Made by a program: the position numbers and the translations under genes. The notes under the pieces were generated by a model. The model saw only the letters and a list, made by a program, of their open reading frames with translations, was not told where the DNA came from and did no database searches. Below, one piece after another: positions 10,161 through 22,213 of a stretch of DNA of 32,000 nucleotides (its first letter is position 1; every line of letters begins with the position of its first letter). Source of the DNA: Promethearchaeum syntrophicum (lineage in GTDB: Archaea; Asgardarchaeota; Lokiarchaeia; Sigyniarchaeales; Promethearchaeaceae); the NCBI RefSeq assembly GCF_008000775.2, contig NZ_CP042905.2:1020001-1052000 (forward strand), in the 5' to 3' direction.

Positions 10161-10331
10161 CTCGTTATTGTTTTTTTAATTACATTTTTACAATTATTTT
10201 TCGACATTTAATCTTAAAAATTCATCAATACAAATTTAAGCATTTAAAACCTAGTTAAACCATAAATACATTGTAAAAATAATTCAGCCAATTAAAACAC
10301 TATAAAAACGAAATAATTGTTGAGTATCCTT

Positions 10332-10880
10332 ATGTCTGGTCTTCGTGAATATATCTTCAAAATTGTAATTTTAGGTGATGGAAAAGTAGGTAAAACTTCC
10401 CTAGTATTACAATACACCGAGCATAAGTTCAACGAAAATTATATAATGTCTATTGGTGCAAATTTTGCAATAAAGATGGTCCATGTTAAAGATAATACTA
10501 TCATTCGACTTCAACTTTGGGATCTTGCTGGTCAACAACATTTTCAATTTGTGAGACCGAGTTTCTATCGTGGAGCTTTTGCTTCAATATTCGTTTTTGA
10601 TCTTACTCGAAGAGATTCTTTTAACAGTATTCGTAAATGGAAGGAAGAGTGTGATCAATATGTACCTGGAATTCCTCTTGTTCTAGTAGGGAATAAATCT
10701 GATTTAAATGATGAACGCGTTGTATCTCGAAGAGAAGGACAGGCACTTTCTTTGGAAATTGGCTCAGATTATTATTATGAAACTAGTGCTAAAACTGCGG
10801 ATAACATCGAAAAACTATTTTTAGATATCACTGATACTCTTATTGAAAAACATATAACGAATAGAAATTCAAAATCATGA
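10332..10880 (+). CDS. Eukaryote-like Rab/Ras-family small GTPase
   Basis: G1 is GDGKVGKTS, switch II/G3 is WDLAGQQHF, G4 is GNKSDL and G5 is ETSAK, in Rab-like spacing. There is no C-terminal Cys prenylation motif (the protein ends NRNSKS). The track start is TTG 10317; ATG 10332 gives MSGLREYIFKIVILGDG. Confidence 0.85.
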   Translation: MSGLREYIFKIVILGDGKVGKTSLVLQYTEHKFNENYIMSIGANFAIKMVHVKDNTIIRLQLWDLAGQQHFQFVRPSFYRGAFASIFVFDLTRRDSFNSIRKWKEECDQYVPGIPLVLVGNKSDLNDERVVSRREGQALSLEIGSDYYYETSAKTADNIEKLFLDITDTLIEKHITNRNSKS

Positions 10881-10918: not shown

Positions 10919-11572
10919 TTATTTTAAAATCGATAACCCGTTTGATATTTCAATTTTCAATTTCTCATGAATTTTTAAAAGGATCGGGTGGTCGGGGGGT
11001 AAATTTGCTTCAAGTAATTCCCTTTCTTTATAATTTCCTTCAGAATACAATCTTTCTAATTCCTCTTCAGTTAAAGCTTTCTCATTTTGAATAAGTTGTT
11101 GTGCAAGATCCAGAGTTGTTTTATTTATATGCAAAGGATCTACATCCTCTTCTGAAATTATATCCCAAGTTTCTATTGTTTTTTTTTTCTTTTTGAACTG
11201 TAATGAATCAATAGGCATGGGAATATCAAGAAATACTTTGTTACTGTCATTATGTGGTAAAAATTTTCTAAAAAATATGTTTCCATTCAATTTTTTATTC
11301 TTAATTATCCATTTAATTAATGCGGTATCAATAATATCTAGTTTAATAGAAACCCATTTATTTATGGTAGAATTTATTTTAAAAGCACCGTAAGCGTAAA
11401 ATGGGCAAAAAATTATAACCATATAAGCGAAAATATTAAGTCCTCTAGCAAAGAAAAAAGCTGAGAGTATAATTAAATTTAAAATTACATCAATGTGTAA
11501 CGCAACCCTTAATTGTGCTCTTCTCTGTGGTAACACTTTTTTCACTTTCTCCAACTTATACCATTTACTCAA
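10919..11572 (-). CDS. Membrane protein (2 TM hairpin) with a cytoplasmic region ending in a 67-aa module shared with the LRR protein
   Basis: Two hydrophobic helices are present (LIILSAFFFARGLNIFAYMVIIFCPFYAYGAF). The C-terminus KTTLDLAQQLIQNEKALTEEELERLYSEGNYKERELLEANLPPDHPILLKIHEKLKIEISNGLSILK aligns without gaps to the C-terminus of the 20424-21815 product. Function unknown. Confidence 0.6.
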   Translation of the reverse strand: MSKWYKLEKVKKVLPQRRAQLRVALHIDVILNLIILSAFFFARGLNIFAYMVIIFCPFYAYGAFKINSTINKWVSIKLDIIDTALIKWIIKNKKLNGNIFFRKFLPHNDSNKVFLDIPMPIDSLQFKKKKKTIETWDIISEEDVDPLHINKTTLDLAQQLIQNEKALTEEELERLYSEGNYKERELLEANLPPDHPILLKIHEKLKIEISNGLSILK

Positions 11573-11698: not shown

Positions 11699-12619
11699 AT
11701 GTCTCAAAAAACATCTAAATTTTGCTGGGGTTGTGGAAATCAGTTAAAACCTGGACAAAAATTTTGCACTCGGTGTGGAAAGGTGGTAACTTCTCAAATC
11801 AAAGCATCTCAACCCATTGTTGAACGTAAACAAGAAACTAAATCAAATTATGGTAAATTAGCACCTGTTCAACAAACTAAAGAGAATTATCAAGAAAGAA
11901 ATATCCCTAAAGTAAATTCTGTTGATTTAAGTGAAATTGAAAAGAAAATCGATGATCTTCGCTCAAGTCTCGGTGGCCAATTTGAGAAACTTGAATATAA
12001 AGTAAACGGATTCAATGTTGAAAATAAAATTATAGATTTAAAATCCAAATTTGATAAATTATTACCTGAAATATCCAATATGAAAGAATTTAAAAAACTC
12101 GAGAAATTGGACCGACTTGATAGATTGGAGAAATTGGATAGACTGGAGAAGTTGGATAATTTAGAAAAACTCGCCACCGCTGAGGATTTAAGAAATCTTG
12201 ACGAAAAAATCAATAATCTGAACACACGAGATTTAGAATCAAAAATTACTTCTCTTGAAGAAAAAATGAATTCAAAGTTGAGTTCTATTGAAGAAGGAAT
12301 CGATAGTTTCCAATCAGATTCAAAAATTGTCAACCTCGCTTCTAATACTGTCGAAAGATTAAACACTATGGATAGAAATATTGAAAATTTTAACCTTGAA
12401 ACTCGAACCCGGTTATCGAAAATGGATGACAAGATTGAAGAATTAAACTCATCGTTATCTGCATTAGTTCCAACCCTTTTGAAATTAAATGAAAAAGTGA
12501 GTAAATTGTTAGTTAAGTCAACAACTAAACCAACTGACATTCAAAAAGGGGCGAAAAAACCAGAAGAGGCCAGTAAACCACCTAAATCTAAATTAGATCT
12601 TCCACCATTTCCCGCTTAA
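11699..12619 (+). CDS. Zinc-ribbon plus long coiled-coil protein with a Pro/Lys-rich tail
   Basis: The N-terminus carries CWGCGNQLKPGQKFCTRCG (CxxC...CxxC). The central ~200 aa are heptad-like and E/K/L/N/D-rich, including the LEKLDRLDRLEKLDRLEKLDNLEKL repeats. The tail reads KKPEEASKPPKSKLDLPPFPA. Confidence 0.7.
   Translation: MSQKTSKFCWGCGNQLKPGQKFCTRCGKVVTSQIKASQPIVERKQETKSNYGKLAPVQQTKENYQERNIPKVNSVDLSEIEKKIDDLRSSLGGQFEKLEYKVNGFNVENKIIDLKSKFDKLLPEISNMKEFKKLEKLDRLDRLEKLDRLEKLDNLEKLATAEDLRNLDEKINNLNTRDLESKITSLEEKMNSKLSSIEEGIDSFQSDSKIVNLASNTVERLNTMDRNIENFNLETRTRLSKMDDKIEELNSSLSALVPTLLKLNEKVSKLLVKSTTKPTDIQKGAKKPEEASKPPKSKLDLPPFPA
12095..12172 (+). repeat. Tandem 9/18-bp coding repeat encoding (LEK/LDR)n
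   Basis: The DNA reads aaactcgagaaattggaccgacttgatagattggagaaattggatagactggagaagttggataatttagaaaaactc and encodes KLEKLDRLDRLEKLDRLEKLDNLEKL. Codon usage differs among units. Confidence 0.8.
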
Positions 12620-18801: not shown

Positions 18802-20241
18802 CTACCAAGGATGTTTTTTCCGCTTCTTCTTTCCTTGCATCATCTTTTGCTGCATTTCTGCCATTTCTTGCATATCAGGCATTTGGCCACCGTCTAATCC
18901 TGGAATACCACCCGCACCTGGTTGTCCTTTTTTACCACGGCGTTTCTTCCCTAAAATTCCCTTCATAAATACTTTCATTTGAGAATATTGTTTTAACATC
19001 TGTTTTATTTCCGTGTATGTTGTGCCGCTTCCCCTTGCAATTCTTGTAATTCGAGTTTTTCTTATAACATCTGGATTATCTTTCTCGAATTTAGTCATCG
19101 ATCCCAATACATAATCCCATTTATCTAAGTTAGCTTCGGCTAATACCTTAGCTTGTTCAGGGATATTCTGCCCTCCCATCATAGCTAATATTTTTGAAAA
19201 TCCGCCCATTTTATCAAGCGATTTAAGCTGAAGATGCATATCATCAAGCGTAAATTTACCTTTCATCATTCTCTTCATTTGGTCTTCGTCGGGTTCAAGT
19301 TCAAGCTCTTTTACTTTCTCGATTAATCCTTCGATATCAGGGATCCCCAACAATGTTCCGATAAATTTTGAAGCATGAAACTCTTCCAAATCATCAACTT
19401 TTTCTCCAACACCAATAAATTTGATAGGTGCTCCTGATGCGGCTGCTGCTGAAAGTGCTCCTCCCCCTTTTGCTGACCCATCCAATTTGGTTATAATAAT
19501 TGAACCAACATGTGTAGTCTGTGCAAAAGCAAGAGCTTGAGCATAAGCTTGTTGACCTAGTGTTCCATCAATTACCAAAATAGTCTCATTTGGTTTGATT
19601 ATATTTTCCAGTTTCTGCATCTCTTGCATTAATGCAGTTTCTTGCTTATGTCGACCTGCAGTATCCACAATGATAAGATCTTTTTGGTCTTTACCAGTTT
19701 TTATAAAATGTCTTAATCCTTTTTTAGCGATTTTTATGGCATTTTTCTCTTCAGGCATTCCAAAATGGCTCACTTTGATTGAATCACAGGTCTGGGCCAG
19801 CTGGTCGTATGCACCGGGTCGCCACGTGTCCGTACAGATAACTCCTATCTTGAAACCTTTTTTCTTATAAAAATTTGCGAGTTTTCCTATACTAGTTGTT
19901 TTTCCTGAACCTTGGATTCCAACTAAAAGAATTATTGATTGTTTGCCGGTTTTTATCCGTTTAGGAGCGTTATCTCCCCCAAGAATGTTTATTAACTCAT
20001 CATGCACAATTTTAATTATAAATTCTTTTCGTTCGATTTTTTTATTTATCTTTTGATCCATAGATCTCTTCTTTATATTTTCAGTCAATTGTAGACATAG
20101 CTCAACGTTCACATCGGCCATCAACAATGCCCTTTGTAACTCTAGTAGGATTCCGTTAATAGCATCTTTATCAATTTCGGGTAAGCGGCGTATTTTACGA
20201 ATGAGTGAATCAAGAGATTTTCCAAGATCGTTTAAAACCAT
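18802..20241 (-). CDS. srp54: Signal recognition particle protein SRP54
   Basis: It has an N domain, a G domain with [15 protein letters not shown] and TKLDG motifs, and a Met-rich M domain ([20 protein letters not shown]). Confidence 0.95.
20122..20241 (-). repeat. Resident copy (srp54 codons 1-40) of a diverged 120-nt direct repeat; partner at 22045-22164
   Basis: By-eye alignment gives 41 nt identical (20201-20241 vs 22124-22164) and about 20 mismatches over the full 120 nt. Homology starts exactly at the start codon and ends after codon 40. Confidence 0.85.
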
Positions 20242-20423
20242 TTTTACATGTGCTCTTCCTATTTTTTATTTAAATATTTCATTATTTTATTTTTTATATA
20301 TATATAGAAATGGATGAGATTTGAAGTTTTAGAGGATTTGCCATGATATAAGGCAAGAAATTTTTCAATTTAAAATTTTTTTTACCATTAGAACTAAAAC
20401 ACATTTTTTACAACTCTCTACAA

Positions 20424-21815
20424 CTATTTAAAAATTGATTCTCCCGAAAGCAGATTGAATTTAAGTCGTTGGTTGATTTTTTGAATAACAACATTTTCAC
20501 TTGGAAAATTCGATTCGAGCGCATTTCGATCTTCGATATTTGCCTCCCAAATTATTCGCTCGAGTTCATCATCGCTGATTGAATTGGGATCTGAAATGTA
20601 TTGTTGAATAAGTTCAGTAGTTGTTTTTTTGTAATAATTCATTATTTGGTCAATAATCTCCATATTATAGAATTGTCCAGTTTCCATTTCCCCAGTGTCT
20701 TCATCGATCCTTTCATAGGGTGTTAGGAATCTATTTATGAATTCATCAAATCGGGGTCCTAAGTCGAATCCTTTGTATTTTTTATATTGAAACATTAAGC
20801 AGAAGGTAAAATCATGGTTTAAATAGCATAAAGAACGAAGTGGGTTATTTTGGATCTCAATTCTGGTATTAATTTTAAGTTTTGAGGGAAAATACTTTAA
20901 GGATGTTAGATTGTTACCCATCAGATTTAATTTTTTAAGGTTTGGCAGTTCACGGGGTAAACCTTCTAAAGAAACCAATAAGTTTACTCCAAGAGCCATA
21001 TCTTCAAGAAGAGGAAGATATTTGGGAAAACCTCGTAGATTGCGAAGAGGGCAGCCTGTTACAGCGAATTTTTTTAATTTCGGCAATGATGAAGGAATTA
21101 ACTCTAAAGTCTGAATGAGGCAATTATGAATACCGAATCTTTCTAAAGAAGGTAATTTATTTGGAATCCCTCTTAGGGAATTAAGAGAACCTTTAAAAGA
21201 TGGAGGATATGAAGCGTTAATAATAAAAGTTTTTAACGAGGGGAGTTTCGCTGGTAGATCACTGATATCTGCTATTTGAGAATTACTAATGAATAAATTC
21301 TCAAGGTTTGGCAATAATTTCGGTAATCCTTTTAAATTTGATAGCGGAGCTCCTTTTTTAGTCGCTTTTTCATATTCTAGAGAGTCTTTTATGTAGTATA
21401 AATATGAAAATCCGTTAATAGATAGTTTCTTCAGATTTGGCAATTCTTTAGGTAATCCTTCTAATGATTTGATTTCATGGGAAATTATGCCCAAAATGGA
21501 AAGATTTGGTAAGTCTTGTGGTATTCCCTTAAGTGAATCAACAGAATAAGGGGGAAAATCAAACAAATTAATAATAACGAAATTAGGAAATTTTTCCTTA
21601 AATTCCTCTTTAGAAGTAAGACCTTTTCCAAACCTATATGGTTCGGGCTGAGAAAAAAGTTTATAAATTGCATCTTTTTTTTTTTTCATACAATAATGGA
21701 GAAAGATACCTGTTGTTGATTCATTAATTTCATCCCAAATATGGTTTAAATCTTTCTTTCGATAAACATTATTAATTTTATCCTTCTTGGATTCGATTGT
21801 CTTCAATTTAATCAT
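20424..21815 (-). CDS. Leucine-rich repeat protein with a unique N-terminal region and a shared 67-aa C-terminal module
   Basis: About 10 tandem LRR units of ~22-24 aa have the signature L.G(L/I)P..LPNL(K/E).L.I (e.g. SLEGLPKELPNLKKLSI, NLKGLPKLLPNLENLFI, SLEGLPRELPNLKKLNL). The C-terminus aligns to that of the 10919-11572 product. Confidence 0.8.
   Translation of the reverse strand: MIKLKTIESKKDKINNVYRKKDLNHIWDEINESTTGIFLHYCMKKKKDAIYKLFSQPEPYRFGKGLTSKEEFKEKFPNFVIINLFDFPPYSVDSLKGIPQDLPNLSILGIISHEIKSLEGLPKELPNLKKLSINGFSYLYYIKDSLEYEKATKKGAPLSNLKGLPKLLPNLENLFISNSQIADISDLPAKLPSLKTFIINASYPPSFKGSLNSLRGIPNKLPSLERFGIHNCLIQTLELIPSSLPKLKKFAVTGCPLRNLRGFPKYLPLLEDMALGVNLLVSLEGLPRELPNLKKLNLMGNNLTSLKYFPSKLKINTRIEIQNNPLRSLCYLNHDFTFCLMFQYKKYKGFDLGPRFDEFINRFLTPYERIDEDTGEMETGQFYNMEIIDQIMNYYKKTTTELIQQYISDPNSISDDELERIIWEANIEDRNALESNFPSENVVIQKINQRLKFNLLSGESIFK
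20811..21533 (-). repeat. Internal LRR-encoding tandem repeats
   Basis: Recurrent DNA units appear on the + strand, such as aggtttggcaataatttcggtaatcc, agatttggcaattctttaggtaatcc and aaggtttggcagttcacggggtaaacc. Coordinates are approximate, derived from aa ~95-335. Confidence 0.6.
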
Positions 21816-22044
21816 CGATTTTTCCTTTCTATTATAATTTTCGGGTTATTATTTTTAAATATTGACAGAGGTACTTTTTATTGATTAATACGATGGAATT
21901 CATAAAAAAAAGGGAAAAAATATTACCATGCGCATTAATAATTGGGAAACTCGTTCAAATATTCCTCGATATGGGTTTCTAAATCGAATCCAGCTGGAAG
22001 TCCCAACTGAGCATATATTGATACGGATTGCATGGAGGGAGGAT

Positions 22045-22164
22045 CAAAAGCGCTCTTTGTAATTCTTGTAAAACCGCGCTAATAGAATCTTTATCAATTT
22101 CGGGCAATCTTCGTATTTTACGGATGAGTGAATCAAGAGATTTTCCAAGATCGTTTAAAACCAT
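22045..22164 (-). pseudogene. Orphan 5' fragment of an srp54 allele (codons 1-40 only)
   Basis: The track ORF 21979-22164 begins [40 protein letters not shown]. Real SRP54 begins [40 protein letters not shown]. After codon 40 it reads unrelated sequence and stops at codon 61. Confidence 0.85.
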
Positions 22165-22213
22165 ATTCTCAATAATTCCAATTCAACGACATTCAAAAAT
22201 TTTATTTAAAATC

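Follow-up and report, generated by a model that had tools for sequence, protein, structure and literature searches.

Two proteins encoded in a 32,000-nucleotide stretch of the Promethearchaeum syntrophicum MK-D1 genome (contig NZ_CP042905.2, positions 1,020,001 to 1,052,000; the window hereafter) end in copies of the same domain. The domain represents a genuine autonomous family of approximately 80-87 residues. One carrier is a leucine-rich repeat (LRR) protein; the other is a small protein with two predicted transmembrane (TM) segments, here called the 2-TM protein. Most relatives are cytoplasmic LRR proteins by prediction, a minority are membrane proteins, and nearly all carry the domain at the extreme C-terminus. 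The domain is tentatively read as a docking module which would bring LRR scaffolds to a common site. The genes and domain copies lie in the window as follows.

20424..21815, minus strand: gene for the LRR protein (QEE15690.1 / DSAG12_01517), a 463-aa open reading frame (ORF) with a Pfam LRR_4 match, identical to the GenBank record.
20427..20687, minus strand: domain copy 1, residues 377-463 of the LRR protein, with the 67-aa core at 20427-20627 (found by BLASTP, tblastn and hidden Markov model (HMM)).
10919..11536, minus strand: gene for the 2-TM protein, a predicted hairpin membrane protein of 205 aa from the likely start GTG 11536; the longest ORF is 10919..11572, 217 aa from TTG 11572.
10922..11176, minus strand: domain copy 2, residues 133-217 of the 2-TM protein in the 217-aa numbering (found by BLASTP, tblastn and HMM).

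A sequence-only reading of the window had described a gap-free, co-terminal tail of 67 residues common to the two proteins, and this description holds. The minus-strand translations of 20427-20627 and 10922-11122 are exactly the two 67-aa peptides that it quoted, and each peptide is the C-terminal end of its ORF (the 463-aa LRR protein and the 217-aa ORF of the 2-TM protein). The plus strand is stop-rich in both intervals. The tails have 26 of 67 residues in common, align without gaps and finish on the same residue. With compositional matrix adjustment, BLASTP (54.7 bits, E=3e-13) carries the match further upstream, to 87 columns with one 2-aa gap, and pairs LRR residues 377-463 with 2-TM residues 133-217. 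Outside the shared tail, BLASTP detects no similarity between the proteins. Neither tblastn nor an HMM scan of the 32-kb window finds domain copies beyond these two, which match profile positions 7-91 (copy 1, 105 bits) and 6-91 (copy 2, 89.6 bits).

E, K and L abound in both tails, and a chance or low-complexity resemblance therefore has to be considered; the sequence-only reading had itself named compositional correction as a check. The similarity survives it, as the E-value above is composition-adjusted. The Smith-Waterman score of the two tails is 140, against 24.9 +/- 4.8 (maximum 51) in 5000 shuffles (z=24), and the HMMER bias amounts to approximately 2 of the 105 bits of copy 1. Position-specific conservation is common to hundreds of homologues, and the structure model is confident. 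An artefact is refuted by these results and is given practically no weight.

The family was delimited by an exhaustive HMMER search with a five-sequence profile against 1.84 billion cluster representatives (50% identity). Exhaustive searching was needed because word-indexed homologue searches returned only 3 and 5 matches. At E<=1e-3 there are 224 matching clusters; 86 of these remain at E<=1e-10. A degenerate DNA pattern search of metagenome contigs gave nine loci, seven of them true carriers. No carriers of the domain were found in the viral contigs searched. Carrier positions were counted in the best 150 of the 224 matches, and the Pfam census covers 149 carriers. Two of the best 150, P0101 and P0108, are repeat-driven false positives, and the Ig and PKD matches stem from P0101.

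The domain is almost strictly C-terminal. Its match ends no more than 3 residues from the C-terminus in 121/150 carriers, and no more than 15 residues from it in 143/150. The portable C-terminal module proposed from the sequence alone is thus confirmed. The profile search for further carriers that had been suggested with it yields many, and their N-terminal partners are mostly LRRs. The consensus of 110 complete terminal copies is eL.eYY.KsP.eLAqQYi.dPkSLt.dE.ERLihEag..ERkiLEnnLPpdDPIL.kIn.RLsi.L.nGlkIl[K/L]-COOH. One Arg is near-invariant (107/110 copies), as is one Glu (109/110). The last seven positions are also conserved, and form the terminal motif nG-[LFY]-x-[IL]-[LFM]-[KL]-COOH. Copies contain 0.28 Cys on average and no Cys is conserved.

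Nine proteins contain two copies of the domain in the architecture LRR-domain-LRR-domain. Most internal copies end by approximately profile position 77; they keep helices 1-3, are degenerate after helix 3-4, and have lost the last helix and the hairpin. In P0006, P0012, P0015 and P0023 the internal copy lies at approximately residues 258-385. The YY.K.P..LA.Q...SL..E..RL..E part is kept in these four, and ER..LE..LP..DPIL..I..RL is lost together with the hairpin. Such a pattern fits an origin in which two carrier genes fused and the copy that was no longer terminal then decayed. Because internal copies have lost the last helix and hairpin, the intact form of the domain appears to require a free C-terminus. 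Partial N-terminal copies in LRR proteins were also considered and were dismissed on account of insignificant domain scores (independent E-value >3).

AlphaFold2 (AF2) models the isolated domain with confidence from a 46-sequence alignment (predicted local distance difference test (pLDDT) 94.6, predicted template modelling score (pTM) 0.79). In the model, five helices of 8-10 residues lead into a two-stranded beta-hairpin at the end of the chain; a strand probably precedes the five helices. The sequence-only reading had called the module probably helical, which is right for its main part and leaves out the terminal hairpin and the probable preceding strand.

No known family accounts for the domain. 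The libraries scanned were Pfam-A 2025, NCBIfam 20.0 and PADLOC 2.0, and neither window tail matches any entry in them. When 46 isolated domains were scanned at E<=1, no family was hit in more than two members and none reached its cut-off; a scan of spacer plus domain gave no family match either. RsmF_methylt_CI matches in five carriers fall in the N-terminal LRR part and not in the domain. A profile search of PDB sequences gave nothing convincing (the best match is a designed protein, E=0.006). Foldseek comparison of the domain model with the PDB returned nothing (best E=3.8, TM-score <=0.37), and there was no fold match in BFVD. The MIT domain, found at the N-terminus of Vps4/CdvC, consists of three long helices, packed as an antiparallel bundle, in approximately 75 aa. 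It was excluded: sequence matches to it reach only E=0.2-0.6, the short helices of the model (five, of 8-10 residues) and its hairpin differ from that architecture, and no MIT domain is among the Foldseek matches. It had been foreseen that the module might map to a known ubiquitous domain with an established function; neither Pfam nor NCBIfam nor the PDB sequences contain a counterpart. No account of the domain was found in the curated libraries, and none of the domain or of these locus tags in the searchable literature. The domain is thus new as a family, and a portable C-terminal interaction domain is familiar as a kind.

LRR proteins make up the bulk of the carriers. Among the 149 carriers in the Pfam census, LRR_4 is found in 75 and LRR_8 in 70. 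Ten carriers with at least 100 upstream residues and no obvious LRR motif were sampled; six still match LRR families. Four sampled proteins without a Pfam match are visibly divergent LRRs. Most carriers are classed from their sequences as cytoplasmic LRR proteins, and the remainder without LRR_4 as mostly divergent LRRs or fragments. LRR carriers do not have N-terminal signal peptides. In many of them a conserved last repeat, 'NPLRSL.GIP', precedes the domain. The sequence-only reading had treated the two window proteins as otherwise unrelated. This is correct in that they have no similarity outside the tail; they are not an arbitrary pair, as the LRR protein is the standard type of carrier and the 2-TM protein is one of the membrane-anchored minority.

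The non-LRR carriers identified are all membrane proteins. In addition to the 2-TM family they are the following.

P0112: membrane carrier without LRR; multi-TM.
P0137: membrane carrier without LRR; an N-terminal anchor, then RKYSKRKRWKK.
P0119: membrane carrier without LRR; signal/TM segment, LVIVD beta-propeller, TM helix, YRTRDLRYK, a tail of approximately 100 aa, and the domain.

P0119 is predicted to be a type-I protein with an extracellular beta-propeller and the domain on its cytoplasmic tail. For each of the membrane carriers, the topology predicted from sequence by the positive-inside rule puts the domain in the cytoplasm.

Judged by the named sequences, the domain is so far specific to Lokiarchaeia. 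All named carriers belong to Promethearchaeum syntrophicum, Promethearchaeum sp., 'Promethearchaeota archaeon' or Ca. Lokiarchaeota / Harpocratesius repetitus. There are at least five carriers in MK-D1: the two in the window plus QEE16349.1, XDF89332.1 and QEE14972.1. One of these is a membrane carrier and at least four are LRR carriers.

Two hydrophobic stretches of the 2-TM protein, at approximately residues 21-42 and 44-66, are bordered on both sides by K/R-rich segments. The protein is predicted to form a hairpin with both termini in the cytoplasm. Translation more likely starts at GTG 11536, giving 205 aa: the recorded product is the 205-aa form, the 217-aa form is not on record, and orthologues of 205-212 aa agree with this start. 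Between the MK-D1 protein and three orthologues, identity is 74-77% in the domain, 64-68% in the TM hairpin, 47-61% in the linker and 18-32% at the N-terminus. In these orthologues the domain is thus shown to be under stronger constraint than the rest of its carrier.

The LRR protein has no hydrophobic segment and no signal peptide (the maximum 19-residue Kyte-Doolittle mean is 1.13). Its N-terminal part belongs to the LRR superfamily: Pfam LRR_4 matches at E=3.3e-14, and the full-length AF2 model (pLDDT 82.5, pTM 0.79) has regular short strands every 22-24 residues from approximately 196 to 320. By Foldseek this part is closest to the LRRs of SspH1/IpaH, SHOC2 and Rsu1, with probability 1.0 for SspH1/IpaH/SHOC2. 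In the model the solenoid is followed by two helices and a beta-hairpin (334-383) and then by the domain, which consists of a strand (377-383), five helices (385-451) and a hairpin (452-462). Strand 377-383 is the second strand of the 334-383 hairpin, and the similarity to the 2-TM protein begins there.

IpaH/SspH effectors resemble the window LRR protein in that an LRR part, the structurally closest one, is followed by a mostly helical C-terminal domain. The likeness stops at that domain. The NEL E3 ligase domain of these effectors has approximately 300 aa and a catalytic Cys, whereas the Lokiarchaeal domain has approximately 80 aa and no conserved Cys, and it is not a member of the NEL family. 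An NCBIfam SspH2 match covers the LRR part only, at E=1.4e-5, which is far below the cut-off.

The favoured reading, to which we assign a probability of roughly 45%, is that the domain is a docking or assembly domain through which LRR scaffolds are recruited either to carriers anchored in the membrane or to a single partner common to all. It would bring paralogous cytoplasmic LRR scaffolds to a common site, most simply the cytoplasmic face of the membrane, and the concave faces of the LRRs would bind variable clients. Docking could take either of two routes. The domain may associate homotypically with the same domain on membrane-anchored carriers, as death-fold, TIR and SAM domains do; alternatively, one shared partner may recognise the domain together with its free C-terminal hairpin. 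In MK-D1, the 2-TM protein of the window would then anchor the network in the membrane, and at least four soluble proteins, the window LRR protein among them, would be its clients. Recruitment is favoured because soluble paralogues combined with membrane tails, dispersed genes and dependence on a free C-terminus match what is seen in homotypic adaptors and co-terminal docking modules.

The comparison with death-fold (DD/CARD/PYD), TIR and SAM domains is one of kind. These too are small autonomous modules, of 70-150 aa, found on soluble proteins, which often contain LRRs, as well as on membrane receptors, in their cytoplasmic tails. Their networks assemble in trans without operon linkage, as those of the Lokiarchaeal domain would. 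It differs in having no sequence or fold similarity to them (no PDB match below E=3.8 with Foldseek and none with the profile), in being almost strictly C-terminal with a conserved end hairpin, and in its restriction to Lokiarchaeia. The SOCS box, the villin headpiece and dockerin offer a second comparison, as compact modules at the extreme C-terminus of varied proteins which recruit these to a common partner. The Lokiarchaeal domain has no Pfam match to any of them, and its N-terminal repertoire is narrow, being limited to LRRs or membrane anchors.

Several observations weigh against recruitment. Membrane-anchored carriers are rare and amount to a handful of clusters among the 150. The taxonomic restriction is based on named matches, which are a minority of all. 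In the full-length model of the LRR protein the region 321-460 is ordered, with pLDDT >=77 throughout, so that the last repeat and the domain are not joined by a disordered linker. Because this connection is ordered, the domain may pack rigidly on the end of the solenoid instead of acting as a free adaptor.

The last point leads to the main rival, in which the domain serves the LRR solenoid structurally, capping or stabilising its C-terminal end, and possibly regulates the concave face within the same molecule. It would then have no role in trans, and the membrane proteins would have acquired it secondarily. The overwhelming majority of carriers are indeed LRR proteins, many with the conserved 'NPLRSL.GIP' repeat just ahead of the domain, and the full-length prediction is confident without a break from the last repeat through the two helices and hairpin into the domain. 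LRRCT, the U2A'-type LRRcap and the internalin inter-repeat domain likewise follow an LRR solenoid, and the model suggests a similarly ordered connection. A cap, however, should occur only directly after a solenoid, and the domain is also present on the 2-TM family, P0112, P0137 and P0119, at least four unrelated membrane architectures without LRRs. It comes after approximately 60 structured residues beyond the last repeat, lacks a Cys pattern and does not match any Pfam cap family. Within the 2-TM family no other part is as well conserved, and the domain folds confidently alone in AF2. Its extreme C-terminal residues are conserved and its internal copies decay, neither of which is required of a mere cap. 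On balance we consider the cap or regulator fairly improbable.

Strict co-terminality could also point to a targeting signal. The domain would then be recognised by sorting, export, vesicle-loading or proteolytic machinery, in the manner of the C-terminal domains of type IX secretion system (T9SS) substrates or of C-degrons. The conserved terminal motif, the restriction of intact copies to true C-termini and the lack of N-terminal signal peptides on LRR carriers all fit such a role. What speaks against it is that the domain is well folded, with 80 aa and a conserved core far from the terminus, and that on membrane carriers it is predicted to be cytoplasmic and tethered by TM segments, which is hard to square with export. 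In addition, no secretion or protease genes recur near carriers. A targeting signal is accordingly regarded as quite improbable.

The sequence-only reading had speculated about a link to small GTPases, with the logic of ROCO proteins (LRR-Roc-COR) split across genes. The GTPase concerned is encoded beside the 2-TM gene.

10317..10880, plus strand: Ras/Rab-like small GTPase of 187 aa (Pfam Ras E=7.6e-50, Roc E=1.2e-30; no COR), listed as context only.

The GTPase and 2-TM genes converge across a 38-nt gap, and the GTPase has no C-terminal Cys for lipidation. The pair is syntenic in three Promethearchaeum sp. metagenome-assembled genomes (MAGs), together with flanking sugar-nucleotide genes and a zinc-ribbon coiled-coil gene. 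The zinc-ribbon gene of the window (11699-12619, plus strand) is divergent from the 2-TM gene and encodes a long coiled-coil with KLEKLDRLDRLEKLDRLEKLDNLEKL-type heptad/hexad repeats; the same synteny is kept in L001-L003.

Spelled out, this idea makes the domain an effector or anchor module of eukaryote-like small GTPases. The adjacent non-prenylated Rab-like GTPase would have its membrane receptor in the 2-TM protein, and LRR carriers would be split-ROCO-like partners. The conserved convergent pair in MK-D1 and the three MAGs is in its favour, as is the missing lipidation site. So is a Roadblock/LC7 (MglB-like) gene (L006 11166-11618) which is convergent with the gene of the MK-D1 carrier P0011/QEE16349.1; it is the sole hint outside the window of a link to GTPase regulators. 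However, the MAGs are congeneric with MK-D1 and their GTPases are 88-93% identical, so the adjacency may simply be inherited gene order, and convergent genes are not co-transcribed. In nine carrier contexts besides that of the 2-TM gene, including that of the membrane carrier P0112, no small GTPase adjoins the carrier. Small GTPase and Roadblock genes are very abundant in Lokiarchaeia, and single adjacencies of this sort are therefore expected by chance.

The resemblance to ROCO proteins is limited to an LRR protein and a Ras/Roc-like GTPase being encoded in one 32-kb window. The genes are 9.5 kb apart, there is no fusion and no COR, and no GTPase recurs beside carriers. The LRR protein matches LRR families only, and the GTPase is a stand-alone 187-aa G domain, so neither is a ROCO protein. 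Roc and COR are absent among the 25 most frequent of the 58 Pfam families in the 149 carriers. A split ROCO-like system does not fit either, since a GTPase is present beside the 2-TM gene only, and only in congeneric synteny. Neither domain content nor context thus supports the proposed link; it is the conserved neighbourhood of the 2-TM and GTPase genes that leaves a GTPase effector or anchor role some small probability, and the role is very doubtful.

No partner gene of any kind recurs in the nine contexts, of which that of the window LRR gene is one. Apart from the genes named above and below, the neighbours are housekeeping genes and genes of no assigned function. Dispersed genes without a conserved operon partner fit a domain that acts in trans within a dispersed network. 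Some neighbours may be recorded in their own right. Giant ORFs (3983- and 7619-aa products) lie directly upstream of two carriers, in L016 and L020. In L020 two carriers are adjacent, and there is an actin gene two genes downstream. The intervals concerned are L016 1-5799 and L020 1-1861, 2104-3639 and 9857-10993. A PARG-like macro-fold gene (L007 1888-3000; E=1.3e-11) lies directly downstream of an LRR carrier on the same strand, and a Macro domain gene (L022 5609-6187) lies 3 nt downstream of the membrane carrier P0112, also on the same strand. ADP-ribose-related genes thus follow two unrelated carriers in 2 of approximately 11 contexts, which seems more than expected for rare genes.

The gene for the window LRR protein lies within a 1.9-kb segment of inserted appearance, flanked by srp54 and by a remnant of the srp54 5' end. 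The first 115-120 nt of srp54 (18802..20241, minus strand) are duplicated 1.92 kb upstream at 85% identity (20120-20244 versus 22043-22167). The duplication begins exactly at the ATG, and the promoter-side sequences differ. The upstream copy heads a 61-aa remnant ORF (21979..22164, minus strand), and the LRR-plus-domain gene lies between the two copies. The arrangement suggests that a 1.9-kb segment with its own replacement 5' end was inserted into codon ~40 of srp54; there is no integrase inside the segment. The Logan contig with the LRR gene is 1942 bp long, and the assembly therefore breaks at the srp54 repeat. An orthologue of the LRR protein from JGI data (L004 508-1137) is split over three frames (LRR fragment, spacer and domain), which makes it a pseudogene or else reflects an error of assembly. 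It diverges in its last 12 residues and lies in a different context, with no srp54.

Lokiarchaeia such as MK-D1 are the cultured model of the archaeal ancestor of eukaryotes. To our knowledge, their expanded repertoires of LRR, small-GTPase and membrane-remodelling proteins are largely uncharacterised. The domain provides a first organising principle for the LRR proteins, as a lineage-specific module which marks a set of cytoplasmic scaffolds and the tails of membrane proteins. It is also a small, well-folding handle for pull-down, localisation and structural work in a cultivable organism. Should it prove to be only an LRR cap, it would be an ordinary new domain of unknown function (DUF). If it docks homotypically or to a common partner, archaea would have evolved a modular adaptor logic of the eukaryotic style, in which genes are dispersed and domains act in trans. 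A bolder version, which seems unlikely, is that the domain is a homotypic adaptor invented by Lokiarchaeia. It would be a functional analogue of death-fold, TIR and SAM domains, wiring membrane sensors (the beta-propeller type-I protein) and anchors (the 2-TM protein, encoded beside the non-lipidated Rab-like GTPase) to LRR scaffolds. If so, the closest cultured relatives of eukaryotes would possess an independent, pre-eukaryotic receptor-adaptor network, and Asgard small GTPases may also have in it their missing membrane tether.

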